A DNA stretch of 39,203 bases from UHGV virus genome UHGV-0043900; one strand, given 5' to 3'. Shown piece after piece: positions 2,380 through 38,623 of this stretch. Position numbers and translations under genes: made by a program. A model generated the notes under the pieces. It was not told the origin of the DNA. It saw nothing but the letters and a program-made list of their open reading frames with translations, and made no database searches. Positions within the stretch are counted from its first letter, which is position 1. Each line of letters begins with the position of its first letter. Source of the stretch: a virus.

Positions 2380-2456
2380 GAATTGGAGTGGGTTAACATG
2401 GGTTCTGGTGAACAGAACTGAAATTCTTTTTCGCTATACGATAGATAAGTCGGACA

Positions 2457-2486
2457 TTGAAATCATCCTTTCTGGCAACTTAGAAT
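2457..2486 (+). promoter_or_regulatory. Candidate sigma70-type promoter reading inward from the left end
   Basis: TTGAAA, 18-bp spacer, TAGAAT, about 45 nt upstream of the 2530 ATG. By-eye match only. Confidence 0.3.
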
Positions 2487-2529
2487 CGAGTTTGCTGAAA
2501 CATGACCCGTAACAAAAAGGATGATTCCA

Positions 2530-2691
2530 ATGACTACTCAAAACAATAAGCATGACAGCCTTGATTACTCAGAAAGGCCCAAAAGCAAGCACATCGTGAC
2601 GTTCGAGCGCGATTCCGGTAGAAAAGGAGAATCGTCTTCCTCTGCCAATAAAACCACTATGCCGGCAGCCCCTGCTCCAGGGAAAAAATAA
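2530..2691 (+). CDS. Small hydrophilic protein (53 aa), unknown function; below the ORF-track size cut-off
   Basis: ATG at 2530 preceded by AAGGA at a 9-nt spacing and a candidate promoter. Ends 3 nt from the stop of the convergent 2695-3327 gene. No recognisable motif. Confidence 0.3.
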   Translation: MTTQNNKHDSLDYSERPKSKHIVTFERDSGRKGESSSSANKTTMPAAPAPGKK

Positions 2692-2694
2692 ACA

Positions 2695-3327
2695 TCATTC
2701 ATCGTTCGTTGCACGAACGCGCCTGATCTCCACTCTGGCAATCTGATCTGCTGGAATATAGGTTGCCAGAGCTCCCCAGTACTTATCAACCACGCCTTTA
2801 TACTCTTCCCATTCGTTACTGCCTGAAGGGCTGCTGTGCGTGACGTAAAGAACCATATCGCCTTTATTCCCCAGGGTAAACGGACCGTTAGGCCACTCTT
2901 CAAAGTTCCCTGGCAGTCGTGACATCATACCGGAACCATCGCGAAGAATCACTCTGACCTCGGTAACGCTGAAGCCTGTTTGATCAAACATTGCCTGCCA
3001 TGCTGAGCTGGTATCGTCAGACCATGAAATATCATTATTCCACAGTAATCTGTACATCCATTTGCGACCGTACCTGCGCCACCACGCACCGCATGTAACG
3101 GCACACAGAAGTGCTGGTGGTGTTGCCAGCCAGGCATTCAGACCTGCCCACATAACTGCCTGGTAAGCCATCATTGCTGTCAGGCCAAAAATCAGCGAAG
3201 AAAAAGTCACCTCAATGGGCTTGTGGTGATCCTTCAGTCCCACATTCGCAATAAAATACCCAATATAGCCACTGGTCAGGGTCACCAGTGTTGCCCATGG
3301 CAGATTTAACAACGAAACGTCAAACAT
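2695..3327 (-). CDS. Membrane protein (three predicted TM helices plus ~110-aa soluble C-terminal domain), unknown function; last gene of the early arm
   Basis: ORF 2695-3405 with start reassigned to the ATG at 3327 (MFDVSLL...), preceded by AGGGAG. Hydrophobic segments LPWATLVTLTSGYIGYFIANVGL, IEVTFSSLIFGLTAMMAYQAVMWAGL and WLATPPALLCAVTCGAWW. No family recognised. Confidence 0.6.
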   Translation of the reverse strand: MFDVSLLNLPWATLVTLTSGYIGYFIANVGLKDHHKPIEVTFSSLIFGLTAMMAYQAVMWAGLNAWLATPPALLCAVTCGAWWRRYGRKWMYRLLWNNDISWSDDTSSAWQAMFDQTGFSVTEVRVILRDGSGMMSRLPGNFEEWPNGPFTLGNKGDMVLYVTHSSPSGSNEWEEYKGVVDKYWGALATYIPADQIARVEIRRVRATNDE

Positions 3328-3441
3328 ATTTTCTCCCTGCATCCTGAATACTAAAGAAAGAGCATAAAAAAAGCACGGTAAGGGGTCTACCGTGCTTTTA
3401 TACAATAAAGAGATTTTTGAAAGGACTTTAACAAGCAGGAA

Positions 3442-3840
3442 TTATCTGGATTTGTTAACGTCTTTCGTCTCCTCTGGCAGATCTTCATCAAACAACCTGC
3501 CCTGCATCCGATCCAGTTCTTCTTTTCTGACCCGCTTAACCACGCTGTAGACCCACTGAAGCGAAACACCAAACTTGCGGGCCAGTTCGTGGTGGTTGCG
3601 TCCGTTAAACTCCCTGAAGATTTCCCGGTCGCGCTGACTGACCTTCCATACCATGCCCATCGGGAAATAAACGTTTTGCCCGCCCCAGACCTGCATCATT
3701 CGGTTCGCGACGGCCTGACCAATCTGGTCGGCAATTGCGGGCTCAATATCAATAATCTCGCGAACGGTCTCAGAGGTATGCTGTGCCAGTTCCACCAGGA
3801 GTTCCGGCCCTTTACTTCGAAACTGATTCAGGTCGCTCAT
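3442..3840 (-). CDS. mor: Mor/C-family transcriptional activator (middle/late gene activator)
   Basis: 132 aa; C-terminal HTH region REIFREFNGRNHHELARKFGVSLQWVYSVVKRVR matches the Mor pattern; sits directly after the GemA-like gene as in Mu. Confidence 0.7.
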   Translation of the reverse strand: MSDLNQFRSKGPELLVELAQHTSETVREIIDIEPAIADQIGQAVANRMMQVWGGQNVYFPMGMVWKVSQRDREIFREFNGRNHHELARKFGVSLQWVYSVVKRVRKEELDRMQGRLFDEDLPEETKDVNKSR

Positions 3841-4264
3841 GTTTTACTCCCGCAGCTCTGCGCTGCCACTTCTTCAGTTTCTCAATAACACTGCTTGCCT
3901 GTTCAGTACTGAGCCAGCGCAGGGCGCTGATGCCCGTTTCCCGCTTGATCCACCGCGCTAATGCATTTTCTGAACGGTCACGAACAATGCCGGCAGCAGC
4001 CATTTCAAGCCATAGCGCACGGATTTTCCTGGACTGCGGATGGTTATCCAGCTGTAAACCGGAGCTGGCTTTTCCGGCAGGCTTAACGCGAAAGCCTTTC
4101 CTTTTCATGGATTCCAGCACGCAGTTTAGTTGTGTGGTATCCATTCCTTTGGTTGAGGCTTTACCGGTCAGCCCCTCTAACATCTGGCGGTAGGTGTCTT
4201 CATCCATACCCAGTTCATTACGGGCAATATGAATGAGCTGGATAAGACGTTGTTTAGTCATCAT
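3812..4264 (-). CDS. gemA: GemA-like protein (Mu gp16 / DUF1018 family)
   Basis: Motifs LIQLIHIARNELGMDEDTYRQML, KIRALWLEMAAAGIVRD and ALRWL...IEKLKKW typical of Mu gp16. Start set at ATG-ATG 4264 with AAAGGAG RBS. Confidence 0.75.
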   Translation of the reverse strand: MMTKQRLIQLIHIARNELGMDEDTYRQMLEGLTGKASTKGMDTTQLNCVLESMKRKGFRVKPAGKASSGLQLDNHPQSRKIRALWLEMAAAGIVRDRSENALARWIKRETGISALRWLSTEQASSVIEKLKKWQRRAAGVKHERPESVSK

Positions 4265-4469
4265 CGTTGCTCCTTTTACCTGCGCCACCGATATAATCGA
4301 CATATAAAGGAAGCGCCACAGGCCAGCACAGGAACATCACCGACCAGCTAATCCAGTAGCCGGCACCACTGTAACGTGAATAAAACCCTGAACGGCGCTG
4401 CAGTTCAGCAGTACACCAACCGACAAAACAATACCAGAACAGGGCACATACAACAGATTCAGCCGTCAT
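4254..4469 (-). CDS. Small membrane protein (~71 aa), unknown function
   Basis: Internal start of ORF 4254-4625 (MTAESVVCALFWYCFVGW...); two hydrophobic segments; short overlap with the upstream gene. Confidence 0.4.
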   Translation of the reverse strand: MTAESVVCALFWYCFVGWCTAELQRRSGFYSRYSGAGYWISWSVMFLCWPVALPLYVDYIGGAGKRSNDDD

Positions 4470-4689
4470 TCTGAATATCCCCCCAACTGATATGAATATT
4501 ACGGGCAGCAATGACTGGGTCGTTATTCCACCATGCACCTGACATATATTTTTCAACCTGTTCGCGTCCGGCAATAACACCAATTGTGATCCCCGGCCTG
4601 ACGTTCTTAAAAAAGGCGCGGGCAAAAAGGTATCTGGCAGATATTCGGCAGGCTTTTAATTTCCGGCTGTTACCTGATAACGTCATCAT
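4459..4689 (-). CDS. Hypothetical early protein (76 aa)
   Basis: ORF in the early operon with start overlapping the stop of the upstream gene (ATGA at 4686-4689). Confidence 0.4.
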   Translation of the reverse strand: MMTLSGNSRKLKACRISARYLFARAFFKNVRPGITIGVIAGREQVEKYMSGAWWNNDPVIAARNIHISWGDIQNDG

Positions 4690-5369
4690 CTGGCCTCCAG
4701 TTTCTGCTGTTCCCGCCCACTGACCGGTCGGTGCAGTCTGACGTTCTGCCCTTCTCGAAACCCCGCATAGCGCGAGGTGTCGCCATTGCGACTTCTTCCC
4801 GGTTTACGCGCCCTGGTGGTTTGCGTCTGCGGGTATTTATGTTCCAGCCACTGCTGCATCAGTTCACGTTCGTCATCGGTCAGGGCGAAGGACTGTATTT
4901 CACTGATAACGGCCAGCACCCAGCCTTCAGCAAACTGGTCTCCACGGCTGGTGCGGGTGGCGGTTTTTATTCTTTTGTTCTGTGTACTGATATACTGCTG
5001 ACGCGCCTTTTTCAGCTGACGGGCCAGCACTTCCCAGGTGTACGCAGCCAGTGCGGCCCGTTCCCGGTTGCCGTAGAACCCCACACCCGGATATGTGCCG
5101 GGGTGAATGATGGAGTTAACACCAAATGCCTCGCGGATGATGTTCATCAGGCCCAGCATGTAGCGCGGCGGACGGAGGCTGCCTGTCGGCCAGTAGTGAC
5201 TGATGGTTTCATCAATATCACTCATGGCGATGTCGGAATGTGTGATGCCGTGAACATCCATCAGTTTACGGGCGCGGCGCAGTGCCAGAGCAGCCTCATG
5301 CGGGTTGCCGGATGCTGCCAGCGCCAGCAACTTTTTCAGTTTCTCAATGTGCTTATCCTGGTCTGTCAT
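4686..5369 (-). CDS. Early protein with DUF2786-like N-terminus
   Basis: 227 aa; N-terminus KHIEKLKKLLALAASGNPHEAALALRRARKLMDVHGIT resembles the DUF2786 helical motif common in phage early regions. Recalled family, not searched. Confidence 0.5.
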   Translation of the reverse strand: MTDQDKHIEKLKKLLALAASGNPHEAALALRRARKLMDVHGITHSDIAMSDIDETISHYWPTGSLRPPRYMLGLMNIIREAFGVNSIIHPGTYPGVGFYGNRERAALAAYTWEVLARQLKKARQQYISTQNKRIKTATRTSRGDQFAEGWVLAVISEIQSFALTDDERELMQQWLEHKYPQTQTTRARKPGRSRNGDTSRYAGFREGQNVRLHRPVSGREQQKLEAR

Positions 5370-5566
5370 TGTTCAGTATCTCCGGTATTTTTTTGCTGTT
5401 CCCATGCCCGAACAGCGTCGGACAGCTCTTTCAGGCTGTATGCTGCTTTAAGCTTTACCCACAACCACTGCGTCACCACGTGGGTCAGCAGGGCAACCAG
5501 GGCGAATCCGGCGCAGATGCACACGGCTATACCAGTAAGCAGGAAAGCCCATACCACAATTTCCAT
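5366..5566 (-). CDS. Small single-pass membrane protein (~66 aa)
   Basis: Internal start of ORF 5366-5803 (MEIVVWAFLLTGIAVCICAGFALVALL...); the long upstream extension of that ORF overlaps the neighbouring gene in another frame. Confidence 0.4.
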   Translation of the reverse strand: MEIVVWAFLLTGIAVCICAGFALVALLTHVVTQWLWVKLKAAYSLKELSDAVRAWEQQKNTGDTEQ

Positions 5567-7384: not shown

Positions 7385-7654
7385 TTACCACAGAGATTCC
7401 GGCCACACGACGCGACAGCCGTGCAGTTCGAAAACGCCCTGACGGAAATGTCCCCTGTGGTCATGACCGGTATACAGATAACTGGCTTTCCCCTGCTCAA
7501 GCATGCGCATGCAATGCGCACTCCTGGAAACGCGAATGACAGGTTTGTTACCCCTGATGGTGATGCTTTGTACATCCGTGTTCGTCGCCTTAAGCGCCAT
7601 AATGGCTGACAGCACTTTGCTGATTTGCTGGTTGATACCTGTGGTGGATTTCAT
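7385..7654 (-). CDS. Hypothetical early protein (89 aa) directly downstream of B
   Basis: ORF with AAGGGG RBS; occupies the position of kil-type genes in Mu-like phages. No motif recognised. Confidence 0.5.
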   Translation of the reverse strand: MKSTTGINQQISKVLSAIMALKATNTDVQSITIRGNKPVIRVSRSAHCMRMLEQGKASYLYTGHDHRGHFRQGVFELHGCRVVWPESLW

Positions 7655-7656
7655 TA

Positions 7657-8823
7657 TTAAACCCCTTTGACAACGTCAGCGTTGACCTGTGGAACCCCGA
7701 TTTCAGCAGCCAGATTCATGGCGGCTATTACCAGGTTACTGACGGCCAGCGGATACAGCAGGCTGACCCTGTTTTTACGATGACTTCCCGGATTGCTCAG
7801 GCGGGCACGTATGGCATCCACTGCGCTGGCGTCCATAATGTCCGTCAGTTGTTTACCGGCCCGTTGCAGTTTGAACGTCAGAAACTCTTCAAGGTGATTG
7901 TCCAGAGGCAGAAGTTCGACCACCTCACAGCGCTGAACGACTTCACGGACTTCCATATTGCGTTCAGACAGTTTTGTCGCCAGTTCCGGCTGGCCAATCA
8001 GCACGATGGACAGCAGTTTTTTGAAACCGGACTCCAGCTCAAAAAAGCGTTTGAGGTGTTTCAGTGTCGGAATGGGCAGGCTGTGGGCCTCCTCAATCAC
8101 CAGAACGTGGCTGAACCCCGCCTGGCTGCTGTCTTTCAGGACGCGATGCAACTGGCGAAAGCGGGCGTCCTGACTGCGTCTGATGCTTTCCAGTGGTGCA
8201 ATGGTACTGATAATGGCTTCGGCAATCGCTGCTGCCTTCAGAGTTTTCCCTTTCACATCGTTGTCTTCCATAGCGATGACGTATGGCTCGATAACAATTA
8301 CCGGCGCATTCTCGCGGTTGATTCGTTCAGTCAGGTCGCGGCGCAGCGTGGATTTGCCCGCACCGGACTCACCGATGACGGCCATAAACCCACCATGACG
8401 GGCTGTCTGGTACAGCGCTTCACGCACATAGCGGATGTCCGGGGTGGTGAACACATCATCAGAACCCTGCATGGCTTCGTCGGCGAACGGGTCACGGAAA
8501 AGACCAAACGCTTTTTTGGTTGCTGGAAATAACACCTGTTTTTTGAGTAACATATTCTCTTCCTCACTGAGGCTCGTTTTATCTGTGGTACCCGCTGTAC
8601 GGGGCGTGGCCGCGCCCTGTACAGCATCAAAACTCTTCGTTGTATCAATCCCCTGACTTTCCAGCCAGGACGCAAGACGCCGGCGCACTTCTCCGGGGCG
8701 GGTGCGGGGCCACGCGTTATGATTCACAATCTGGGCCAGCGTGGCCTCAGAAACATCGACAGCTCTCGCCACCACCGCCTGTGGGATACGGGCCTCTTTC
8801 AGTTGCTGCTTCAGTACCAGCAT
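7657..8823 (-). CDS. DNA transposition protein B (AAA+ ATPase, MuB-like) with N-terminal HTH extension
   Basis: Walker A GESGAGKST and Walker B-like HVLVIEEAH; lies immediately downstream of the transposase. Start preferred at ATG 8823 (GAGGAGG RBS) over the GTG at 8862 used by the ORF track. Confidence 0.8.
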   Translation of the reverse strand: MLVLKQQLKEARIPQAVVARAVDVSEATLAQIVNHNAWPRTRPGEVRRRLASWLESQGIDTTKSFDAVQGAATPRTAGTTDKTSLSEEENMLLKKQVLFPATKKAFGLFRDPFADEAMQGSDDVFTTPDIRYVREALYQTARHGGFMAVIGESGAGKSTLRRDLTERINRENAPVIVIEPYVIAMEDNDVKGKTLKAAAIAEAIISTIAPLESIRRSQDARFRQLHRVLKDSSQAGFSHVLVIEEAHSLPIPTLKHLKRFFELESGFKKLLSIVLIGQPELATKLSERNMEVREVVQRCEVVELLPLDNHLEEFLTFKLQRAGKQLTDIMDASAVDAIRARLSNPGSHRKNRVSLLYPLAVSNLVIAAMNLAAEIGVPQVNADVVKGV

Positions 8824-10606: not shown

Positions 10607-11518
10607 TTATGCCTCCAGCCCGTTAATCTGTGGCGTCGGCTCAGTCAGCCATGAAGGCGCTGCATTGCCTGTTGGCTCGTCCGGCAGGTCAAATGTGGAG
10701 CGCAGGCTACGCGCTGTGCTTTCCAGTTGACAGACCAGGCCTGCCATGAAATCTCTGGGGGTATCAATCATGTTTTCAGCACAATATGCGCACAGTGTCT
10801 CAAAAGCGCTGGACAGTCGAACGGCGATAGCAGATTCCGCCTCAACCGCTAATGCTGTTACTTCCGCCCGCAGCTTCTTAACCTCCTCATCAGGCTCAGG
10901 CGGCTGAATACGGGATTTCTTCTCCAGTCTGGTGGAGAGTGAGTCTATTTTTTCATTTTTGTCGGCGAGTACGCGCTGTTGTGCTGCGTTGGTTTCGCGC
11001 GCTTCGCGCAGGGCCTGACGCAATTCACGTACTGACATGCGATCAACATCGTCAAGCGTCAGTCCTGCGACTGTGCCGCCGTCGGCCAGTTCAGCAAGGT
11101 CGTCGTCATCTTCAGCAACAAGTTCAAATAATTTTGCCTTACCTAAAAGCGACAACGTTGTCGCTTTTGGCTCTAGTTTTGGTGAAAGGTATTTCAAAGA
11201 TGCTTTCATCATTCGTTGTGCTGCGCGCACATGCAGACCAAGTTGTTCTTCTACAATTCCAACAAAGTCCCCGTGTGGTTCATTTTCTTTGAGAATAATA
11301 AGTCGTTTACCTGCTTCCAGCATGGCCTCAGCGCTCTGTGCCATATAAAACCGAGCCTCATGAACTATGCGATCACGCTCATAGGGCTGACCATCGCCAA
11401 ACTGCTGCATGATCTCCATGCGATGCTGTGTCATGGCGTTCAGACTGACATTGAGATCATCCGACAGCGGTACCTCGGCGTTCAGTTCAGTGTTAATCGG
11501 TGATTTGGTGCGTCCCAT
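10607..11518 (-). CDS. Conserved transposable-phage early protein (possibly DUF3102-like)
   Basis: 303 aa, helical and acidic; sits between the regulators and the transposase; AAGGAG RBS. Family name recalled, not verified. Confidence 0.55.
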   Translation of the reverse strand: MGRTKSPINTELNAEVPLSDDLNVSLNAMTQHRMEIMQQFGDGQPYERDRIVHEARFYMAQSAEAMLEAGKRLIILKENEPHGDFVGIVEEQLGLHVRAAQRMMKASLKYLSPKLEPKATTLSLLGKAKLFELVAEDDDDLAELADGGTVAGLTLDDVDRMSVRELRQALREARETNAAQQRVLADKNEKIDSLSTRLEKKSRIQPPEPDEEVKKLRAEVTALAVEAESAIAVRLSSAFETLCAYCAENMIDTPRDFMAGLVCQLESTARSLRSTFDLPDEPTGNAAPSWLTEPTPQINGLEA

Positions 11519-11528
11519 TTATTACTCC

Positions 11529-11837
11529 TTACAAACGACTACCTGAAATGACACGTTGGTTGATTTCGTTAATGCGATCCTGTGCACGTGCCATCTCGTT
11601 ACTGTGGGCCATAGCGATCTGCAGTAACTGGATGCCCGGCGCGAAACGCCCGTTTTCCAGTTTCAGGGCCAACCCTTCTTCAATGAGGGTGTTGAGTGCC
11701 CGGTTGATGTTTGCCGGTGACTCGTGCAGTGCTGCCGCCAGTTCACCGTTGGAAATACCGTTCAGGGCATGACCGCGCAGCGCTTTGAGTACCCGGAGGA
11801 TGCGACTGCCGGAGCTTGAAACATTCGTCTTACTCAT
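11529..11837 (-). CDS. Winged-helix DNA-binding protein (IclR-like HTH), putative early regulator
   Basis: Segment ILRVLKALRGHALNGISNGELAAALHESPANINRALNTLIEEGL resembles an IclR-type N-terminal HTH. Start set at the second ATG (11837), which has better RBS spacing. Confidence 0.5.
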   Translation of the reverse strand: MSKTNVSSSGSRILRVLKALRGHALNGISNGELAAALHESPANINRALNTLIEEGLALKLENGRFAPGIQLLQIAMAHSNEMARAQDRINEINQRVISGSRL

Positions 11838-11889
11838 CTGCATACCTCTTTTGCGATATGTGATAACCTTTTACAAAGACTCAAAATCT

Positions 11890-12078
11890 TCAGGCTGCCT
11901 GAGCTGTTGATTTCAGCCCCAACTTCACGGCGATTTCATGGGATTTACCGTAACGGGCTTTGGTCTGCCCATTGAGAACGCGGTATACCTCATTGCGGTT
12001 GTAGCCGTTTTCTTCTGCCCAGCGGGTGAAGGTGATCCCGCGCTGGCGGAAGAGAGCTTTGACTTGTTCTGCAGTCAT
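11890..12078 (-). CDS. Ner-like small DNA-binding protein (Ner/Nlp family); first gene of the early operon
   Basis: 62 aa with the Ner layout VKALFRQRGITFTRWAEENGY...GKSHEIAVKLGL. Divergent from the repressor gene. RBS AAAGGAGA. Confidence 0.6.
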   Translation of the reverse strand: MTAEQVKALFRQRGITFTRWAEENGYNRNEVYRVLNGQTKARYGKSHEIAVKLGLKSTAQAA

Positions 12079-12178
12079 CGTTGTCTCCTTTGTTGATGCA
12101 ATGATGTTTGCCTTATGTGTGATAGATTATGGTGCAGATTATCTCACCAGTCAACTTAAAGAGTGCAGAAAAACTCAC
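12079..12178. promoter_or_regulatory. Divergent early-promoter/operator region between the Ner-like gene and the repressor
   Basis: 100-bp AT-rich intergenic region between divergent regulators, with direct repeats of AGATTAT 12 bp apart within GTGATAGATTATGGTGCAGATTATCTCAC. Confidence 0.45.
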
Positions 12179-12517
12179 ATGATCGGGTTACGTATTAAAG
12201 AAGAAAGAGAGCGTCTATCTCTTACACAGCAAGGGTTGGCTGATGCTATAGGTGTGGCAAAGAGAACTTTCATTGATTGGGAAAAAGATCGCACTTCTCC
12301 TACTGCAGTGCAGTTATCTGCACTATCAGAAATCGGTGTAGATATTTTGTATGTAGTTACTGGGGTGCGGAGTCAGCCTGTTGTTGCACCTTATGTGTCA
12401 CAAGAAAAGAAAGAGTTAATGGATGCATTCGACGAAATGAGCCCCGAACAACGGAGGGCAATTCTTGAGGTCGGCAAAGTCTTCATTCAACCCAAACCAA
12501 GCAAACTCGCAGGCTGA
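12179..12517 (+). CDS. Putative prophage repressor (XRE-family HTH)
   Basis: Internal ATG of ORF 12026-12517; HTH LSLTQQGLADAIGVAKRTFIDWEKDRTSP; divergent from the early operon. GC-poor relative to neighbours. Confidence 0.65.
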   Translation: MIGLRIKEERERLSLTQQGLADAIGVAKRTFIDWEKDRTSPTAVQLSALSEIGVDILYVVTGVRSQPVVAPYVSQEKKELMDAFDEMSPEQRRAILEVGKVFIQPKPSKLAG

Positions 12518-12603
12518 TTTTGACCTGGACACAAAGGGCGCGTGGTTGATCTGGATGCTTTCAGAAAACATCGCCAGTGACATAGTGGAAGTTGTTTGGT
12601 TTA

Positions 12604-12637
12604 CCGGAAAGCATTGTGCTTTCCGGTTTTGTTTCAG
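12604..12637 (+). terminator. Rho-independent terminator between convergent repressor and Dam genes
   Basis: 10-bp perfect stem CCGGAAAGCA/TGCTTTCCGG with 3-nt loop, followed by TTTTGTTT. Confidence 0.5.
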
Positions 12638-13398
12638 AAGTTGCAGATTACCAGTTCACGGCGCGGCGTGGGTTTCCCCGCCAGACTGTAGTTGATATTC
12701 ACCGTCTGTATGTTCAGTTCAGTGAACACCCGACGCATCTGCGGAATGTCATTCACCGAGATAATCATCTTTCCTCTGATGCACCGTGCCAGTTCTGCGA
12801 GTAGTGTGTAGTTCTCTTCAGGAAAATCCACACCATAGCCTTCCGTCCCCAGATAGGGCGGATCACAGTAGAACAGCGTGTGCGGACGGTCATAACGCTT
12901 AATGCACTGGTGCCAGTCCATGTGTTCTATCACCGTTCTGGAAAGCCGCAGGTGTGCCGCTGACAGTTCTTCTTCAATCCGGAGCAGGTTGAAGCGTGGC
13001 GGGGAGGTGGTGGAGGTGCCGAAGCTGTGCTCTGCCACCTTGCCCCCAAACGCCTGCTTCTGGAGGTAGTAGAACCGTGCCGCACGCTGGATATCCGTCA
13101 GTGTTTCTTCCGGGGTGATCTGCTGCCATTTGTAGATCTGCCGGCTAACCAGCGCCCATTTGAATTGGCGGACAAATTCTTCCAGATGATGCTTTACTAC
13201 CCGATACAGATTTACCAGTTCACCGTTGATATCGTTAATGACTTCGATCTTGCTGGGAGTCTTGAGAAAATAAAGTGCTGCTGCGCCGCAGAATGGCTCC
13301 ACATAGCAGGTATGGAGTGGGAACTGGGGCAGAATGTGTTTGGCCAGACGACGTTTTCCCCCAATCCAGGGGACGATGGGTAAAGATTGTTCTTTCAT
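12634..13398 (-). CDS. Orphan DNA adenine methyltransferase (Dam/D12-class N6-adenine MTase)
   Basis: N-terminal IVPWIGGKRRLAKHIL, FCGAAAL AdoMet motif and catalytic DPPY (LFYCDPPYLGTEGYG). Start set at the internal ATG 13398 (MKEQSLPIVPW). No restriction partner evident. Confidence 0.8.
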   Translation of the reverse strand: MKEQSLPIVPWIGGKRRLAKHILPQFPLHTCYVEPFCGAAALYFLKTPSKIEVINDINGELVNLYRVVKHHLEEFVRQFKWALVSRQIYKWQQITPEETLTDIQRAARFYYLQKQAFGGKVAEHSFGTSTTSPPRFNLLRIEEELSAAHLRLSRTVIEHMDWHQCIKRYDRPHTLFYCDPPYLGTEGYGVDFPEENYTLLAELARCIRGKMIISVNDIPQMRRVFTELNIQTVNINYSLAGKPTPRRELVICNF

Positions 13399-13445
13399 TA
13401 TCTGTAAGCCTTTTTCATTAGATGAAAATGCGATAGGCTTCCCTT

Positions 13446-13457
13446 GTTCTCGAGAAC
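13446..13457. promoter_or_regulatory. Perfect 12-bp palindrome GTTCTCGAGAAC in the Dam / paralog-1 divergent intergenic region (candidate operator)
   Basis: The duplicated cassette carries a different perfect 12-bp palindrome at the equivalent position (14081-14092), so dyad symmetry is preserved despite sequence change. Confidence 0.35.
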
Positions 13458-13500
13458 GGAAGAGCCTCGGTTGACTCACAGCTCATACCTGTAAGTTGAT

Positions 13501-13550
13501 GACTCGCCTTGTGTTCGCTGCACAAGGTGAGTCGCTCTTTTCATGTTATT
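13501..13550 (+). terminator. Strong hairpin plus U-rich tract upstream of paralog 1 (terminator or attenuator-like element)
   Basis: 13-bp stem GACTCGCCTTGTG/CACAAGGTGAGTC (one G-U pair), 7-nt loop, then GCTCTTTTCATGTTATTTG. The cassette copy at 14138-14181 has a different stem with the same architecture. Confidence 0.45.
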
Positions 13551-13592
13551 TGCATATTTCATGGGCGACAATTAAAGGGAGTTACTAATACC

Positions 13593-13973
13593 ATGGCCCC
13601 AAAAAATATTGAGCGGTTTAATGAAATAGTTGGTGAGATATTTGGGAGACTCTACGAATCTTTCCCCGTCAAAATTGATATAAAGGCAGTTGATATCGTT
13701 AGACAGAATGAACTTACTTTTTTTCTTGATACCGTAGACTGGCTTAAAAACAGTGGCTATTTAATCGGGGCGCGTAGTTCTGGGGGGATCCACAACGCAG
13801 TGCTAACGGCTAAAGGTCTTGAGGTATTAAACGCTACGCCTGGAAGTCTGGAAAAACCGTTGGGGGCCAGAATATCTGACTCTATAAAAATTGAAGGGAA
13901 AGAAGCGTTGCGATCACTGGTTAGCCAGACTCTAGGAATAGGTCTGCAATATATGTCTCGTGGTCTTATGTAA
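13593..13973 (+). CDS. Small protein of unknown function (127 aa), paralog 1 of a duplicated pair
   Basis: Internal ATG of ORF 13509-13973 with RBS AAAGGGAG. Shares FxxIxGxIFxRL, DTxxWL and VLTxKxLxxLNATP blocks with the protein at 14439-14843. AT-rich codon usage. Confidence 0.6.
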   Translation: MAPKNIERFNEIVGEIFGRLYESFPVKIDIKAVDIVRQNELTFFLDTVDWLKNSGYLIGARSSGGIHNAVLTAKGLEVLNATPGSLEKPLGARISDSIKIEGKEALRSLVSQTLGIGLQYMSRGLM

Positions 13974-14033
13974 TATCGCAAGGCAGCGTTTGCCACCAAT
14001 CCATGGAACGATGGGTAATGTCTGCGTTTTCAT
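13932..14033 (-). pseudogene. Remnant 5' end of a second Dam methylase gene (about 20 conserved codons)
   Basis: Reverse strand encodes MKTQTLPIVPWIGGKR, homologous to the start of the intact Dam (MKEQSLPIVPWIGGKRR), then diverges into the 3' end of paralog 1 and stops after 33 codons. Confidence 0.55.
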
Positions 14034-14080
14034 AATCTGTAAACATTTTACAATTATTAAAAATATGGCAGGCTAGTCTG

Positions 14081-14092
14081 GTCTCGCGAGAC
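14081..14092. promoter_or_regulatory. Perfect 12-bp palindrome GTCTCGCGAGAC (candidate operator of the duplicated cassette)
   Basis: Positional equivalent of GTTCTCGAGAAC at 13446-13457, with the same flanking conserved block CCTCGGT-G-CTCACAGC. Confidence 0.35.
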
Positions 14093-14137
14093 TGACTGAA
14101 CCTCGGTCGGCTCACAGCCACTTCTGTGGGACGATGG

Positions 14138-14181
14138 CCAGCCCGGTGGGTCCGAAGCACCGGGCTGGTCGTTCTTTCATG
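14138..14181 (+). terminator. Hairpin plus U-rich tract, second copy of the cassette leader element
   Basis: 11-bp perfect stem CCAGCCCGGTG/CACCGGGCTGG, 9-nt loop, then TCGTTCTTTCATG. Confidence 0.45.
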
Positions 14182-14224
14182 ATGCGGCAGGGATGAAGTG
14201 ATTTCTGTTAATGTGGTTTAGGGA

Positions 14225-14440
14225 TTATCCGGGGCGATTTTCTGACCTTATCTGGTCCAGGGCATAAGTAATACCTTCTGCAAAAACAGAAGTATCAAAC
14301 TGCTTTTGTATTTCCTGAAAATGAACTGTGGCACGACAGACACTCAGTTCTCCGCGATGTAACCGGATAATATCTTCCAGAACATTGTTCACTGCTTCAG
14401 CACGGCGCTGATGTTCTGTTAACGTTAATCGGGGATTCAT
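14225..14440 (-). CDS. Hypothetical 71-aa helical protein
   Basis: ORF whose ATG overlaps head-to-head with the ATG of the 14439 gene (CATGATG). No recognisable motif. Confidence 0.4.
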   Translation of the reverse strand: MNPRLTLTEHQRRAEAVNNVLEDIIRLHRGELSVCRATVHFQEIQKQFDTSVFAEGITYALDQIRSENRPG

Positions 14441-14843
14441 GATGCACTCCTTAAATGATGATTTTTATGCACTCACCGGCAAAATATTCTGCCGATTACT
14501 GAACACGCATCCGGCACCTCAGGTTTTGATTTATTCTGGTTTTTTCGATATCCCGGACCAGGTTGATCACGACCAGAAAAAGTGCCGGTATTTTATTGAT
14601 ACGCTGATATGGCTTCGGGATAACAGCTATATTCGTTACTCTCAGTTGCTGGCTGTGGGAGCGGCTGATGTCGTCCTCACGGAAAAAACGCTCCGTCTGC
14701 TCAATGCCACGCCGACCCTTCTGCAGCCCCGGCCCGCACCATTTAAAGAGTCACTTCTGGATGCAGTAAAAACCGGTGAAAATGCAGTCATCGCTGAACG
14801 CGTATCCCGGATTATGAGTTACGTGTTTAATGAACGTAAGTGA
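14439..14843 (+). CDS. Small protein of unknown function (134 aa), paralog 2 of the duplicated pair
   Basis: RBS GGGGA then ATG-ATG. Roughly 25-30% identity by eye to paralog 1 over conserved blocks. 3' end overlaps the convergent P-loop gene by 25 nt. Confidence 0.6.
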   Translation: MMHSLNDDFYALTGKIFCRLLNTHPAPQVLIYSGFFDIPDQVDHDQKKCRYFIDTLIWLRDNSYIRYSQLLAVGAADVVLTEKTLRLLNATPTLLQPRPAPFKESLLDAVKTGENAVIAERVSRIMSYVFNERK

Positions 14844-15562
14844 GGTTTATCCGCTGTCTGCATAATCCCGATAGCCAGTGCGAGGGGAAGTAATTCCGGG
14901 GAAGTTCTTTCAAACAGCGATTCCCATTCTCCTCTCGCCATCACTCTGTCCAGCCCGCCCTCCAGTTGCATTTCAGCAATCTTCCTGATTTCCCGGAACA
15001 ACGCCTCTTTGATCACTTCATGCTCAGCTTTATTTTCCGGTGTCAGAATGTATTCGTCGAAGAACCGGGGAGGCTGGTTAACGGGGATTGTGTTCACCGG
15101 GATGTGTTCCTGCTTCCCGTACTTCGGGGCCGAAAAACATTCTGTTGGCTGACCAGTGAGTTTACGTAGCTCCTTCATGAGCAGCTCCTGATCGTAAACT
15201 GCCATCAGTGCCGCAATAGTGGCATGCAGTGCATCGGGCAGTGTCCATGGGTACTGGCCTGTGGGGCATATAACATCCAGCAGTGCATTCGTCCGGAGAA
15301 TGCATCCCTCGCTGTATGACATCGGAGTTTTTTCTGTGTATTCCTCCAGTCGGATAAGTGTGCCTGCCCGTGGTTTCTGCCATGTGCTCAGATCACCCCC
15401 ACTCATACGGCGCTCACCGTCCACGTCTGCGGCGTCGACAATGACGCTGTTTCCGAATTCCTGTTTCACCACTTCCTCTATCCGCGCCAATATGTAACTT
15501 TTACCGCTGCCCACAGGACCGGACACGGTGACAGTGATGACCGGATTCAGTGTCTGCGTCAT
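14819..15562 (-). CDS. Small P-loop NTPase/kinase-like protein (247 aa), unknown function
   Basis: N-terminal Walker A VTVSGPVGSGKSY, followed by hhhhD-like SVIVDAADVDG. Strong RBS GAGGAG. Resembles small nucleotide-kinase or zeta-toxin-like folds in layout only. Confidence 0.7.
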   Translation of the reverse strand: MTQTLNPVITVTVSGPVGSGKSYILARIEEVVKQEFGNSVIVDAADVDGERRMSGGDLSTWQKPRAGTLIRLEEYTEKTPMSYSEGCILRTNALLDVICPTGQYPWTLPDALHATIAALMAVYDQELLMKELRKLTGQPTECFSAPKYGKQEHIPVNTIPVNQPPRFFDEYILTPENKAEHEVIKEALFREIRKIAEMQLEGGLDRVMARGEWESLFERTSPELLPLALAIGIMQTADKPHLRSLNT

Positions 15563-15634
15563 ATCGTATTCTCCTCTGTGAATAATTCATCGTTTATCCT
15601 GCACATCCCGTATCCCCGGCTCTCTTAACGCGCT

Positions 15635-15673
15635 TTAAAATCCTTCGCGCCCTGTATTTGTGATGCTGTCTCC
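15635..15673 (+). promoter_or_regulatory. Candidate activator-dependent late promoter of the lysis operon
   Basis: TTAAAATC-N23-CTGTCTCC with inner CTGTATTT, about 20 nt upstream of the holin ATG. The same bipartite motif at identical spacing occurs at 23030-23068. Confidence 0.4.
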
Positions 15674-15692
15674 ACCAGATAAGGAGACACAC

Positions 15693-16043
15693 ATGAAAAA
15701 CCTGAAAACATTCATTCCCCCTGTTAAAAAACCTCGCCTCAGCGGCTGGCTGCTGACCTCAGTGCTGTTGCTGGGCACCATCGCTCTGGTCTCACCACAG
15801 CAACTGCCTGTTGTGATCTACAAGCTGGCACTCATCACGCTGGCAGCAGTGCTGGGTTACTGGCTTGACCGTTCGCTCTTCCCCAAAGCCCGTCCCGGTC
15901 AGTACCTGAAACATGACGACAGGCTGATGGCTGAAGGGCGTTTCCCGGTACAGACCGGCCTTCACCTGGTGTTTTCTGCTGCGTTAATCCGCCGTGCACT
16001 GATTGTTGCAGCGGTCTGCCTGGCTGTTGCGATGGGGCTTTAA
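15693..16043 (+). CDS. Putative holin (three predicted TM segments)
   Basis: Internal ATG of ORF 15660-16043 with RBS AAGGAGA; 116 aa, three hydrophobic helices; immediately upstream of the endolysin. Confidence 0.55.
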   Translation: MKNLKTFIPPVKKPRLSGWLLTSVLLLGTIALVSPQQLPVVIYKLALITLAAVLGYWLDRSLFPKARPGQYLKHDDRLMAEGRFPVQTGLHLVFSAALIRRALIVAAVCLAVAMGL

Positions 16044-16045
16044 TC

Positions 16046-16786
16046 ATGAACTGGCCGCAGATCACCTGGATTGTATGCATGTCCCTGAAACTGGCTTTCG
16101 AAGCCTTTCGGGTCTTCATCAGAACCGAACGCCTGTCAGTCCGCGCCGGGACCTTTCTGGTTCATATGGCATGGGTATTCTTTGTCGCAATATTGCTCTG
16201 GTGTGGCGGCTTTTTCAGCCAGGCATGCGCAGCACAACCTCCGCAGGCTGCGCTGCAGTATCGCGATGATGTGATCCGTAATGCCCGGCTTGAATGGGGA
16301 CTGTCTGCGCCGGTGGCCGACTTTGCCGCGCAACTGCATCAGGAAAGCGGCTGGCGACCTGATGCGGTCTCACCGGCTGGCGCTCAAGGACTGGCGCAGT
16401 TCATGCCTGCCACTGCCGACTGGATAAGCCAGTTGATACCGATGCTGAGCAGTCGTGAGCCGTTTAATCCTGCATGGGCTATCCGGGCGCTGGTCAGCTA
16501 TGACCGCTGGCTGTGGCAGCGCGTCAGCGCCGCCAACGACTGCGAGCGTATGGCCATGACACTGTCGGGCTATAACGGTGGTCTGGGCTGGGTACAACGG
16601 GACAGGCGGCTTGCATCACAGAAAGGTCTGGACAGCACCCGCTGGTTTGGTCATGTCGCCACGGTGAATGCCGGACGCAATGCGGCCAGCTGGCGGGAGA
16701 ACCGTCATTATCCGCAACGCATTCTGCGTGAGCTGGCACCGCGATATCTCACATGGGGAGGCAGCAGTTGTGTGGCATCTGGTTAA
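16046..16786 (+). CDS. Endolysin: lytic transglycosylase (SLT domain) with hydrophobic N-terminal signal or SAR-like segment
   Basis: SLT motifs EWGLSAPVADFAAQLHQESGWRPDAVSPAGAQGLAQFMPATADWI; N-terminal hydrophobic stretch MAWVFFVAILLWCGGFFSQACAA. Confidence 0.8.
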   Translation: MNWPQITWIVCMSLKLAFEAFRVFIRTERLSVRAGTFLVHMAWVFFVAILLWCGGFFSQACAAQPPQAALQYRDDVIRNARLEWGLSAPVADFAAQLHQESGWRPDAVSPAGAQGLAQFMPATADWISQLIPMLSSREPFNPAWAIRALVSYDRWLWQRVSAANDCERMAMTLSGYNGGLGWVQRDRRLASQKGLDSTRWFGHVATVNAGRNAASWRENRHYPQRILRELAPRYLTWGGSSCVASG

Positions 16787-28104: not shown

Positions 28105-28625
28105 TGTCAAAGATTGAGATAAACCGAATCACGAATGCCAACATCTATCTGGATGGTACTAACCTGCTGGGACGGGCTGAGGAGGTTAAACTCCCCGATG
28201 TCTCCATGATTATGCAGGAACACAAGGCACTGGGGATGGTGGGTAAGGTGGAACTCCCGGCTGGTTTTGACAAACTGGAAGGCGAAATCAAATGGAACAG
28301 CTTTTACCGCGATGCGATGCTGTCTGCCGCGAACCCGTACAGGTCGCTGGCGCTGCAGTGTCGCTCCAGCGTCCAGCGCTACAGCTCGCAGGGGCTGATT
28401 GACGAAATCCCGCTGGTCACCTTCCTGACAATTATGTTCAAGAAGAACCCGCTGGGGACGTTCAAACAGCACGAGAACGCCGAGTTCTCCAGCAGCTTCA
28501 CCTGCACGTATATCAGACAGGTACTGGATGGTGAAGAGCTGCTGATGCTGGACTACCTGGCCAACATCTTCCGCGTCGGTGGCGTTGATCAACTGACCGA
28601 CTACCGCATCAATATCGGAGGCTGA
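28104..28625 (+). CDS. Tail tube protein (Mu M-like)
   Basis: 173 aa immediately after the sheath with ATGA overlap. Confidence 0.75.
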   Translation: MSKIEINRITNANIYLDGTNLLGRAEEVKLPDVSMIMQEHKALGMVGKVELPAGFDKLEGEIKWNSFYRDAMLSAANPYRSLALQCRSSVQRYSSQGLIDEIPLVTFLTIMFKKNPLGTFKQHENAEFSSSFTCTYIRQVLDGEELLMLDYLANIFRVGGVDQLTDYRINIGG

Positions 28626-28627
28626 CG

Positions 28628-28909
28628 GTGAGTGTTGAACTGACGGATAAAGGAGGACGATGTGCGGCACTGGGCATGTCAAATGGTACGTGGTTTACCC
28701 TCCTTGATATTCCGGGGGTGGAAACCCTTTTTAATACCCGTAAAACCAATGACCCGATTGACTGCTCGCGTTCAAAGGCCCGCAAACTGGCGGATTTGAT
28801 TGAAGCATGGGAGCCACCCGATCACTGGTTCTCCGGCATCGACAAATCTGAGGGAAAGGCGCTTCTCATCGCTTTCCTGCGTAACTGCAAGGGGTTTCGC
28901 ACTTGCTGA
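28628..28909 (+). CDS. Hypothetical tail-module protein (93 aa, GTG start)
   Basis: GTG start 5 nt after GGAGG; followed by a terminator. No motif recognised. Confidence 0.45.
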   Translation: MSVELTDKGGRCAALGMSNGTWFTLLDIPGVETLFNTRKTNDPIDCSRSKARKLADLIEAWEPPDHWFSGIDKSEGKALLIAFLRNCKGFRTC

Positions 28910-28916
28910 TATCACA

Positions 28917-28940
28917 GGGGCTCCGGCCCCTTTCTTCTTA
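28917..28940 (+). terminator. Rho-independent terminator (GC stem plus T-tract) within the tail gene cluster
   Basis: GGGGCTCCGGCCCC stem-loop followed by TTTCTTCTT. Confidence 0.5.
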
Positions 28941-29007
28941 ATCTCCTTTAATATCCGTCACGTCCACCGCCAGACATACTGCCCTGAACTTACACAGGAG
29001 CACGATC

Positions 29008-29343
29008 ATGTCACAGACCCAGCCAGATACTTTTACGCTGTCTTATCCTTTCACCACTGCTGCCGGCACCAGAATTGAGCAGATTGAACTGAAACGCCTG
29101 ACGGTAAAAGACCTGAAGCAGGTGCGCAAAATCAACAAAGACCCGGCAGACTGGGACGAACCGCTGATTGCCCGTAGCACTGGTATCCTCCCGGAGGACC
29201 TCGATAACATGGATCTTGCCGACTATATGGAGCTGCAGAAACGATTTCAGAAAATCACTGGGCTGGACAAGAGCGACAAAAACGCTGACGCAGGCGCAGG
29301 GGCTGCTGGCAAGGTGGTTCAGGTTTCAGCCGGGGGAGATTGA
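29008..29343 (+). CDS. Tail assembly chaperone (Mu gp41 / P2 E / lambda G analogue)
   Basis: 111 aa acidic protein directly upstream of the tape measure gene; its 3' half is overlapped by a long open +1 frame. Confidence 0.6.
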   Translation: MSQTQPDTFTLSYPFTTAAGTRIEQIELKRLTVKDLKQVRKINKDPADWDEPLIARSTGILPEDLDNMDLADYMELQKRFQKITGLDKSDKNADAGAGAAGKVVQVSAGGD

Positions 29344-36228: not shown

Positions 36229-36802
36229 GCCGTTACAACTCCCGCCACCGCTTGAGGGTGATATCAGTCTCAGAACACTGGGAAGACTGGCCGGGCGGCT
36301 GGATAACATTGACCTGAGCGTACTGATGGTCTGTCTCGTCGATATCGTCGACAGTTCCGCGCTGCCATGGTTGGGCGAGCAGTTCTCACTGTTCGGTGAT
36401 GGCTGGGAGCTTGCTGAATCGGACGATGTTCGTCGCATGCTTATCAAATCTGCTATCGAGCTGCACCGCTACAAAGGAACGCCGTGGTCAGTCAGAGAGA
36501 TTATTCGGCGTTTCGGTTTTGGGGAGGTAGACATAATCGAAGGCCTGGGGGGATTACATTATAACGGCCAAAGACAGTTCAATGGGTATTGCCTTTATGG
36601 TGACGAAAGTTCCTGGGCTATATACAGAGTAATATTACAGAGGCCAATAACTAATGACCAGGCAACATTATTACGCCGTGTACTTTCATTTTTTGCCCCC
36701 GCGCGATGCCATCTTATTAGCCTTGATTATCAGTCTGTACCCGTTCGTTATAACGCAGAAGCCTGTTATGACAGTAATTATAATTATGGGAGTCATCAGT
36801 AA
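36221..36802 (+). CDS. Tail protein I-like (Mu gp48 / P2 gpI)
   Basis: 193 aa; between baseplate J and the tail fibre gene. Confidence 0.65.
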   Translation: MTEPLQLPPPLEGDISLRTLGRLAGRLDNIDLSVLMVCLVDIVDSSALPWLGEQFSLFGDGWELAESDDVRRMLIKSAIELHRYKGTPWSVREIIRRFGFGEVDIIEGLGGLHYNGQRQFNGYCLYGDESSWAIYRVILQRPITNDQATLLRRVLSFFAPARCHLISLDYQSVPVRYNAEACYDSNYNYGSHQ

Positions 36803-37794
36803 TGGCGAAACTAAATGAATCTGCTGTCTGGGAAGACGGCATTTACCAGCTTGAAGTTTCTGATCCAGTTTTGGGTGGTCCAGGGGGGATTGCAAACCGA
36901 CAGGCTGAACAACTGGCAAACAGAACAGCATATTTAAAAAAGAAAGCTGAACGTCAGGATAAGGGACTGGAGGACCATCAAAAAGCATCTGATCCACATA
37001 CCCAGTATGCCCACAAAGAATCTCCGGCGTTTAGCGGCACCCCGACTGCACCAACTGCGGATAAAGCGGATAACAGCAATAAGCTGGCCACGACAAAATT
37101 TGTAAAAGGGGCAATCGCTGATCTGCAGTCAAAATTAGATAATAACCAGCCCGTTGACTGCTATACAAAAGCCGAATCAGATACCAGGTATCCGGATTCA
37201 GGAAGTGTTGCATACCTGACGAAAAGTACAATTCAGCGTTTTCAGGGAAGTATTGAAGTCAGGGATATTTTCAGTATCTACACATTAAATGATGTAAACG
37301 GTCTCAGGCTCGAACCGGGACTAAAAAATAACATTGGACTGAAACGCAGGGGAAAATGGACTTATTACAGCTTCCCGGATAAGGATGGGGAACTGGCATT
37401 AAAATCTGATTTAACTTCGCTTCTGGACGGTCTGGACATATATCCTGTGGGAGCACCACTTCCCTGGCCATTAGCCACACCGCCATCGGGTTACTTAATC
37501 TGTAACGGACAACGATTTAACCCGTCCACCTACCCCGGGCTGGCTTCTGCCTATCCAGGTGGTGTCCTGCCGGATTTGCGCGGTGAATTTATTCGTGGCT
37601 GGGATAATGGTCGTGGTGTGGATACAGGAAGACGCATCCTCAGTCAGCAATTCGGCAATACCCCAGTTATGGATTATGAATATCCAGTAGGCAGTGGTTT
37701 TTCGGTAACGATTCGCACTGTAGGAAATGATGAAGGTGCAAATGAAACGCGTCCGCGAAATATCGCTTTTTTATATATCGTGAGGGCTAAATAA
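36802..37794 (+). CDS. Tail fibre protein with C-terminal phage 'tail collar' domain
   Basis: 330 aa; C-terminal motif YLICNGQRFNPSTYPGLASAYPGGVLPDLRGEFIRGWDNGRGVDTGR matches the Tail_Collar consensus. Lower GC than the core tail genes. Confidence 0.75.
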   Translation: MAKLNESAVWEDGIYQLEVSDPVLGGPGGIANRQAEQLANRTAYLKKKAERQDKGLEDHQKASDPHTQYAHKESPAFSGTPTAPTADKADNSNKLATTKFVKGAIADLQSKLDNNQPVDCYTKAESDTRYPDSGSVAYLTKSTIQRFQGSIEVRDIFSIYTLNDVNGLRLEPGLKNNIGLKRRGKWTYYSFPDKDGELALKSDLTSLLDGLDIYPVGAPLPWPLATPPSGYLICNGQRFNPSTYPGLASAYPGGVLPDLRGEFIRGWDNGRGVDTGRRILSQQFGNTPVMDYEYPVGSGFSVTIRTVGNDEGANETRPRNIAFLYIVRAK

Positions 37795-38414: not shown

Positions 38415-38428
38415 TTATCTACAATTAC

Positions 38429-38480
38429 GGCCTGTACTCATGATGGCGGTAAAATCCATGAGTACAGGCTGGTGTATGTC
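38429..38480 (+). terminator. Hairpin terminator at the end of the late operon
   Basis: 13-bp perfect stem GGCCTGTACTCAT/ATGAGTACAGGCC with ~15-nt loop, followed by a moderately T-rich tract. Confidence 0.4.
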
Positions 38481-38623
38481 TGAATATATGCATTTCTGTT
38501 ACAGGTTAGTTGATACAAAAGAATAACATGGATATTTACAAGTGATGAGGCCAGGGTTAAGGTTTGAAGCTATTGTGTAAAATTGCAATTCTTTTTCAAT
38601 ATCCGTAACGTAAAGCTTGTTCC

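Follow-up and report, generated by a model that had tools for sequence, protein, structure and literature searches.

We analyzed a 39,203-nucleotide stretch of DNA, the UHGV virus genome UHGV-0043900, and focused on an island at positions 12634-15562 located between the repressor and holin genes of a prophage. The whole stretch (the 39.2-kb window) matches E. coli IGC_RcoliRes_1.1 (NZ_CP054662.1) with full identity and contains a complete BcepMu-like (Bcepmuvirus-type) transposable prophage at approximately 2340-38660, with E. coli adeP as its insertion site. A preliminary description, made from the sequence alone, had regarded the island as a single accessory module of six genes. All six elements are indeed present: an orphan Dam methylase, two small paralogous proteins, a Dam remnant, a 71-amino-acid (aa) gene and a 247-aa P-loop gene. 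Their orientations alternate as described (- + - - + - along the island), and the GC content is lower, with 49.1% in the island, 53.9% in the prophage and 55.2% in the late arm, the value of the island being matched or undercut by only 8% of prophage windows of its size. The region is also accessory and mosaic, since BcepMu has other, unrelated genes at the same position (gp18-gp20), and KP12 and other relatives carry different cargo. What did not survive is the single module: the island is made of two layers, a resident leftward P-loop/Dam operon and an inserted, low-GC cargo of winged-helix genes (Table 1).

The GC content separates both layers, frame and cargo. Dam (52.4%) and the P-loop part of the 247-aa gene (54.1%) resemble the core of the prophage, and the dip is carried by winged-helix copy 1 (42.4%), the 71-aa gene (43.5%) and winged-helix copy 2 (47.2%). 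Besides, a P-loop gene and Dam, both leftward and divergent from the holin, were found in every enterobacterial BcepMu-like prophage retrieved, and the P-loop module is in these relatives a separate protein of 141-158 or 244 aa encoded near Dam. What lies between them differs. The P-loop gene (244 aa) directly adjoins Dam with no cargo in L009 and L010, an opposite-strand 164-aa gene separates Dam from the P-loop gene (141 aa) in L015-17, and a winged-helix gene of the copy-1 type does so in Salmonella L087 (P-loop gene of 158 aa); in KP12, Dam is adjoined by a 188-aa DUF2441-like gene. Dam and the roughly 135 N-terminal residues of the 247-aa protein are therefore resident, and the interval between them is a cargo slot. 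Hence, the objection that these might be ordinary genes conserved in all relatives holds for Dam and the P-loop gene only, in the enterobacterial relatives examined. The alternative cargo of the slot (the 164- and 188-aa genes, BcepMu gp18-20 and others) gave no convincing defence or Pfam assignment. In the literature searched, we found no description of this repressor-lysis slot of BcepMu-like phages and nothing on the genes of the island.

Table 1. Features of the island and its surroundings (positions in the window)
Feature	Position	Strand	Basis or remark
Dam, orphan D12-class N6-adenine DNA methyltransferase, 254 aa	12634-13398	-	PF02086 2.9e-27, DPPY
Structured Dam mRNA leader	13396-13486	-	RNAalifold, pair counts; covariance model R1 104 bits
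15-bp hairpin upstream of Dam	13501-13535	+	T-run on + strand only
Winged-helix protein, copy 1, 126 aa	13593-13973	+	phrog_2266 1e-35; without head-to-head partner
Dam remnant, first 19 codons of resident Dam	13977-14033	-	MKTQTLPIVPWIGGKRCLA
Second, decaying Dam leader copy, native upstream region of the displaced Dam	14031-14122	-	R1 92 bits
16-bp hairpin, now downstream of copy 1	14133-14173	+	T-rich + strand tail; counterpart of 13501-13535
71-aa helical protein, head-to-head partner of copy 2	14225-14440	-	phrog_4490 5e-51
Winged-helix protein, copy 2, 134 aa	14439-14843	+	phrog_2266; antisense to both flanking genes
247-aa gene	14819-15562	-	phrog_3787; Walker A GPVGSGKS (residues 15-22)
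C-terminal partner domain of the 247-aa protein, ~residues 155-247	14822-15100	-	
N-terminal P-loop module of the 247-aa protein, ~residues 1-135	15158-15562	-	
Divergent intergenic region, leftward P-loop/Dam operon and holin (late lysis) operon	15563-15692		promoters presumed
Intrinsic terminator after the repressor gene	12603-12627	+	11-bp stem, U-run; free energy (dG) -18.5, z -4.8
Repressor	12059-12517	+	
Immunity region of the prophage	11890-12517		
Mor-family gene of the prophage	3442-3840		
Early arm: Mor-family gene, gemA-like, Gam, ExeA-type B protein, DDE transposase, IclR-like, Ner-like		leftward	
Late arm: holin, then SLT endolysin, spanin	holin from 15693	rightward	

The most striking arrangement of the cargo is the head-to-head pair formed by copy 2 and the 71-aa gene. 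Their ATG codons share two bases (CATG), a 2-nucleotide (nt) start overlap, and the placement of the Shine-Dalgarno sequences is reciprocal, with the AAGGAG ribosome-binding site of the 71-aa gene lying inside the first codons of copy 2. At its 3' end, copy 2 overlaps the 247-aa gene by 25 nt. We found the 2-nt start overlap in E. coli, in all 43 P2-like loci, in Aeromonas, in two Pseudomonas lineages and in Pectobacterium, and a gap of 1 to 4 nt between start codons in Serratia, Yersinia and Laribacter; the winged-helix proteins of these lineages are only about 25-35% identical. Given the overlap of the starts and ribosome-binding sites, the two mRNAs would be complementary at their 5' ends and the expression of both genes would be mutually exclusive. 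An 8-nt direct repeat, ATGCACTC, occurs at 14442-14449 and 14466-14473 (24 nt apart), inside the region of copy 2 and the 71-aa 5' untranslated region, and could be an operator or a product of chance.

Purifying selection acts on both genes of the pair. The ratio of nonsynonymous to synonymous polymorphism (pN/pS) of the 71-aa gene is 0.43. In the P2-like set, it is 0.14 for the winged-helix gene and 0.33 for the small open reading frame (ORF) in its annotated frame, versus 1.08 or more in those frames whose third positions differ from its own. According to this difference between frames, the small ORFs are real genes.

Regarding the winged-helix proteins, copies 1 and 2 are 27% identical (E 2e-12) and neither gave a Pfam match at E <= 0.1. 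A profile built from the two paralogues and their close relatives recovered at least 915 clusters at 50% identity (E <= 0.001), nearly all of them of 125-160 aa. The named members come from Pseudomonas, Aeromonas, Yersinia, Serratia, Pectobacterium, Laribacter and Salmonella, and all are annotated as hypothetical or ‘DUF2513’; among 76 members of the family there was no relevant Pfam match, and DUF2513, the UniRef name of some of them, went unmatched at E <= 0.01. The confident structural model shows the topology of a helix and a beta-hairpin wing, so the family is shown, at the level of the predicted structure, to have a winged-helix fold. Sequence searches of the profile against the PDB gave only weak winged-helix hints (eS10, AspA and YjcQ, with E 0.25-0.7), and a fold search in BFVD returned nothing below E 0.03. 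The family differs from the winged helices of the MarR, PadR and Rrf2 type in that it shows no membership at the sequence level, and its first helix-turn-helix (HTH) helix is replaced by a variable loop.

The small partners are more heterogeneous. A single family takes in those of Yersinia (74 aa), Aeromonas (91), Pseudomonas (83 and 78), Pectobacterium (72) and Laribacter (106), with the motif D-x3-R-x2-[FY]-W ... P-x-E-[IL]-L-x-E-A-L, and it also includes an 89-aa protein of Serratia and the C-terminus of the 247-aa protein. The 71- and 73-aa proteins are at best distant relatives of this canonical family, with borderline profile scores (hhalign P 7e-4, hmmsearch E 0.01-0.03), and BLASTP of the 71-, 73- and 63-aa partners against it gave no match. 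In E. coli and Serratia, the cassette has the layout partner (-), winged-helix gene (+), small partner (-), and in E. coli the first of these partners is now fused to the resident P-loop protein.

Several results converge on this fusion. The homologues of 141-158 aa stop at about residue 135 of the 247-aa protein, and residues 137-174 are almost devoid of predicted secondary structure in a low-confidence model (AlphaFold2, alignment of 12 sequences, predicted local distance difference test score of 40). In Serratia, a free 89-aa gene occupies the place of the 247-aa gene and matches phrog_3787 only at 176-230. The C-terminus of the 247-aa protein, in turn, matches the free small partners with E values of 1e-6 to 2e-9 by BLASTP and of 1e-7 to 8e-24 by hidden Markov models (HMM). 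By comparing these boundaries and matches, we can conclude that the 247-aa protein is a lineage-specific fusion between the resident P-loop protein and a partner of around 90 aa from the winged-helix cassette. The fusion is confined to the E. coli lineage. As for its N-terminal part, it may be the small P-loop NTPase of the preliminary description, given its Walker A pattern (GxxxxGK[ST]). The Pfam matches all stayed below the cut-off and extended over the P-loop only (AAA_30, 16 bits; KAP, 13 bits), the PDB gave no sequence match, and in the distant homologue P0032 the motif is degenerate (GAESSGKN).

The cassette is common and far from restricted to this prophage. Some part of the 4.1-kb region was present in 636 of 5426 complete E. 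coli genomes, and the 71/134 pair in 499 of them, with 95-99% identity, including ST131 and phage PhiKM. We also found it in P2-like, lambdoid and other prophages. In the P2-like phages (L046-L086, viral contigs), the pair, often with a 90-aa gene, sits in the hotspot between gpA and portal (old/tin), a position that has been described (PMC9122126; 10.1101/2024.10.15.618418). Across the 43 P2-like loci, it is a constant island with variable cargo on both sides, much of which consists of known defence genes: retron RT_VI, AbiP2, GmrSD/Orf5-like, PDC-M48B, Fic/PDC-S04, AriA-like and NsnA-like neighbours. Elsewhere, the cassette lies between antiterminator Q and holin (three lambdoid prophages of Yersinia), directly after a cI-type repressor (Aeromonas), between terminase and W/portal or between tail tube and chaperone (Pseudomonas), within a P2/186-type early operon (Pectobacterium), and between the tail-fibre assembly and sheath genes (Laribacter), which we take to be the position of the P2 Z/fun hotspot. 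All these locations are known positions of morons or hotspots. The winged-helix gene runs against the neighbouring phage genes, and the partner along with them, in 10 of 11 contexts, which were hand-picked among those retrievable and are no random sample. In the Mu-type prophage of Pseudomonas chlororaphis (L096), the cassette at 4766-5444 separates the tail tube from the tail assembly chaperone genes; at the equivalent place of the window (28625-29008) there is a 93-aa gene (28628-28909) of unannotated function.

Dam, the resident gene on the other side of the slot, clearly belongs to the D12 class, with 96.4 bits for PF02086 against a cut-off of 22, and with DPPY and EPFCGAAAL in its translation. 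It matches the PADLOC MTase_II model at 1e-113 but falls below the equivalog level of E. coli Dam (112.1 bits versus 114.85 for TIGR00571, and 64 versus 441 for NF008152), and it belongs to a clade spread among temperate phages. It does not form a Type II restriction-modification system, as the genes next to it encode the repressor and a winged-helix protein and no nuclease domain was found. Orphan Dam methylases of phages are classical candidates for counter-restriction. The observed/expected ratio of GATC sites (0.67) was uninformative.

The Dam remnant records a separate event. It is followed by its former upstream region, and 13978-14074 is 72% identical to 13343-13439; besides, intact Dam genes of other E. 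coli genomes match 13978-14224 with 88-96% identity through their 5' end and upstream region. In Salmonella too, copy 1 is accompanied by the remnant and by a second leader copy. From this company, we conclude that copy 1 came with a diverged Dam allele, the one now at 12634-13398, that displaced the resident Dam at codon 19. The recombination took place independently of the 71/134 cassette, and the arrangement of copy 1 and Dam remnant that it produced was found in 6 of the 5426 complete E. coli genomes, although raw assemblies often contain the exact copy-1 protein.

The Dam mRNA itself starts with a conserved structure. An alignment of seven Dam upstream regions revealed a leader of around 90 nt, conserved on the Dam-sense strand, with three helices: a long-range helix (13473-13481 with 13402-13410) that encloses two hairpins. 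The long-range helix pairs CUGUGAG(U/C)C with GGCUUACAG, ends 4 nt before the Dam AUG and spans an AGG located 4-12 nt before it, the likely Shine-Dalgarno sequence; it is 98% paired across the 7 sequences. Pairing was found in 94.6% of the cells of the alignment versus 34-47% with slid partners, 12 pairs show compensatory changes, and none of 500 shuffles reached these values. Their G-U pairs place the helices on the Dam-sense RNA. With a covariance model built from the leader, we obtained 80-105 bits upstream of Dam in every enterobacterial BcepMu-like locus. In Vibrio phage VP882 (L098, 2070-2163), a match of 30 bits (E 4.7e-4 over 372 kb) immediately precedes Dam, and in B3, phiE125 and BcepMu there was none. 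Rfam gave no match at E <= 1 on either strand of 11500-16500. In the decaying copy, the 3' arm now reads UGUUUACAG through mutation, and the minimum free energy fold no longer has the helix.

The preliminary description had also attributed palindromes and terminators to each unit of the island. Three strong hairpins do exist, and all of them fold far better than shuffles (z about -5), but they belong to the end of the repressor gene and to the Dam upstream region; the terminator-like sites number 6 overall, versus 3.8 +/- 1.8 in shuffles, so there is no excess. Together with a neighbouring hairpin, the one at 14133-14173 reaches a dG of -40 (z -5.0), and between this allele and its counterpart at 13501-13535 the pairing has been kept through compensatory changes. 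The hairpin upstream of Dam (13-15 bp) has A-C mismatches on the Dam-sense strand that become G-U pairs on the + strand; because of this pattern, and of the T-run found only there, we read it as a + strand element. It is probably a terminator or insulator located upstream of Dam, and we infer that, along with the terminator at 12603-12627, it may shield the + strand genes and the lysis operon from read-through of the repressor gene.

One could argue that the presence of an orphan Dam and the company of the cassette in the P2 defence hotspot make the island a candidate for defence or counter-defence, as initially suggested. Both observations favour this idea, whereas four proteins (copy 1, copy 2, the 71-aa protein and the remnant ORF) had no match in the PADLOC-DB 2.0 scan. 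For the 247-aa protein, the scan returned nothing beyond weak P-loop matches (E 0.002-0.06), which are noise, and Dam, which matches MTase models only, is the sole island protein that matches a known defence family. Given its neighbours in the P2-like phages, a defence role of the cassette is plausible, but no more than that.

Based on the antisense embedding of the winged-helix gene, its residence in hotspots, the overlap of the starts, the purifying selection on both genes, the split between frame and cargo, the fusion, the winged-helix fold and the covariation in the leader, we tentatively favour the following chain of events, aware that it may well prove wrong. The resident leftward operon encodes a small P-loop protein and then Dam, is divergent from the holin operon, and would be shielded by the + strand terminators from read-through of the repressor gene. 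The conserved leader would gate the translation of Dam through the long-range helix on its ribosome-binding region, and Dam, judging from its family, would most likely methylate the phage DNA, either as a self-mark or against restriction. In the lysogen, the winged-helix protein would be expressed from a promoter of its own, as a moron product acting on DNA or on a protein of another phage. Once the surrounding lytic operon fires, read-through would silence the winged-helix gene by transcriptional interference and antisense pairing, and the same read-through would yield the partners, which would bind the winged-helix protein already made and switch it off. The lytic cycle of the prophage itself would be spared, and the likeliest use of the cassette would be competition with other phages. 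If so, this would be an exclusion protein active in lysogeny only and disarmed automatically upon induction. The broader claim, that the cassette is a new and widespread prophage conflict module, with an exclusion gene head to head with its own antidote, and that the Dam leader is a Com-free cis-regulatory RNA, is in our view possible but rather doubtful.

A number of results weigh against this proposal. The closest structural neighbours of the winged-helix proteins include protein-binding winged helices (Z-alpha, kleisin, RPA32, cullin) as well as DNA-binding ones, so DNA binding is not established. The lack of PADLOC matches noted above counts here too, and so does the scan for consensus promoters, which found none inside the cassette. 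Among six near-identical E. coli alleles (L018-L027), the pN/pS of the 134-aa gene is about 1, with very few substitutions. The 63/64-aa partner of the P2-like phages has no homology to the canonical partner family detectable by BLASTP or profiles, and a head-to-head partner is missing altogether from some winged-helix genes, namely copy 1, the Salmonella type and that of L031. The polarity is the opposite in Aeromonas, the sole exception among the 11 contexts, whose hand-picking also counts against the proposal. Finally, E. coli itself has a Dam that already methylates GATC.

Alternatively, the cassette could be a local transcriptional regulator or insulator of the adjacent genes (the P-loop/Dam operon here, the hotspot cargo in P2-like phages), similar to the regulators of defence islands. 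We consider this unlikely, but a serious possibility. A winged-helix fold without any enzymatic domain would fit a regulator, and so would the constancy of the pair in the 43 P2-like loci amid variable cargo on both sides, an overlapping divergent layout that resembles a genetic switch, and the position of the cassette here within the Dam operon. Yet in Yersinia, Pseudomonas, Laribacter and Pectobacterium its neighbours are ordinary genes for structure, lysis or replication, and there is no cargo that it could regulate; moreover, the frame works without it in relatives, and we found no operator-like inverted repeat at the junction.

It is improbable that the whole island acts as a lytic counter-defence unit, in which Dam, the P-loop protein and the small proteins would jointly protect the phage DNA from restriction or immunity. 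Such a unit could account for an orphan Dam from a clade spread among temperate phages, for a P-loop gene that is always adjacent to Dam and co-oriented with it, for the fusion of a partner domain to the P-loop protein in E. coli and for an operon divergent from the late lysis promoter region. However, many phages have the cassette without Dam or the P-loop gene, the fusion is limited to the E. coli lineage (the partner of Serratia being the free 89-aa protein), and the host, E. coli, already methylates GATC.

We give little credit to the possibility that the cassette is a selfish addiction module, similar to toxin-antitoxin systems, that stabilizes itself or the prophage. Small, tightly linked paired genes with a mutually exclusive expression geometry, mobile across unrelated phages, are reminiscent of such systems, but these genes are divergent and share no operon, and hence do not qualify as a toxin-antitoxin pair. 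In addition, no domain resembles a toxin, PADLOC and Pfam gave no match, and each half of the pair is found without the other: the winged-helix gene in the partnerless cases mentioned before, and the partners in L029 and L030 (3778-4799), where the winged-helix gene is deleted down to its first 18 codons and the 74- and 247-aa genes are intact. According to the latter, the partners are not lethal alone. Equally improbable are ordinary housekeeping or timing genes (e.g., modulators of lysis or late genes) with no role in conflict: the frame genes are positionally conserved and the cassette often adjoins holin genes (E. coli, Serratia, Yersinia and L031), but tail, terminase, early-operon and immunity regions can harbour it as well, it is missing from the majority of phages in each group, and its GC content and codon usage are foreign to the prophage.

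We also compared the locus with known systems. Like the hotspots of temperate phages (P2 old/tin, lambdoid Q-S, rexAB after cI), the slot is variable, with foreign GC and counter-oriented genes, and the same cassette occupies the P2 gpA-portal site, the Q-holin site in Yersinia and the site after cI in Aeromonas; unlike in those, the cargo here matches no described defence system. P22 sieB/esc and BstA with aba consist of a prophage protein that is harmful to lytic development and an element of the same locus that spares the phage's own cycle. The logic that we propose is alike, with no relationship in sequence or fold, and in our proposal lytic read-through would supply the antidote as one or two small proteins. 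Opposed promoters govern the lysis-lysogeny switches of coliphage 186 (pR/pL), P2 (C/Cox) and Mu (c/ner). The cassette shares with them a larger HTH-type protein and a protein of 60-90 aa, divergent and in units that must interfere with each other, but its starts overlap, so there is no intergenic operator region, and it is accessory, mobile and located outside the immunity region, with no homology to CI, Cox, Apl, Ner or Tum. Two further candidates were discarded. An SOS-dependent antirepressor of the 186 Tum type found no support, with no credible LexA box in or near the island and an hhalign probability of 0.8% for Tum, and neither winged-helix paralogue matches Pfam Mor (PF08765), which excludes late activators of the Mor/C kind.

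The Dam leader has its counterpart in the com-mom operon of Mu, in which the DNA-modification gene is under translational control. Both are found in Mu-type phages before a DNA-modification gene, and in both the ribosome-binding region is held in an RNA helix. B3 has a homologous Dam (around 71% nt identity) with a Com gene overlapping its start, whereas the island has no Com-like zinc-finger ORF and its leader is a different, three-helix structure. The leader would represent a second, Com-independent solution for the translational gating of phage DNA modification.

What is new here is an uncharacterised, widespread and architecturally unusual cassette, together with an undescribed Dam leader RNA, the prophage cargo slot itself being of a known kind. 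The core cassette is present in around 9% of complete E. coli genomes, and the family extends over prophages of Gamma- and Betaproteobacteria with no Pfam family or PADLOC model to its name. A layout kept at about 25-35% protein identity offers a testable hypothesis on how prophages safely carry a harmful or exclusion function. As a defence module, the cassette would add a two-gene system of very small size to what hotspots are known to carry; as a regulator, it would account for a constant element that recurs in the P2 hotspot.

Some observations concern the prophage at large. It splits adeP, the adenine permease gene, into two parts (1260-2333 and 38666-38935 of the window), as expected of integration by transposition. 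Two more stretches have a low GC content (0.42-0.50), one at the distal end of the early arm (2401-4800) and one at the tail-fibre end (36300-38700), and are likely further mosaic segments. In L016, a 182-aa Mor-family gene (7558-8106) lies between the repressor and the Ner-like gene; the immunity region is therefore mosaic too.

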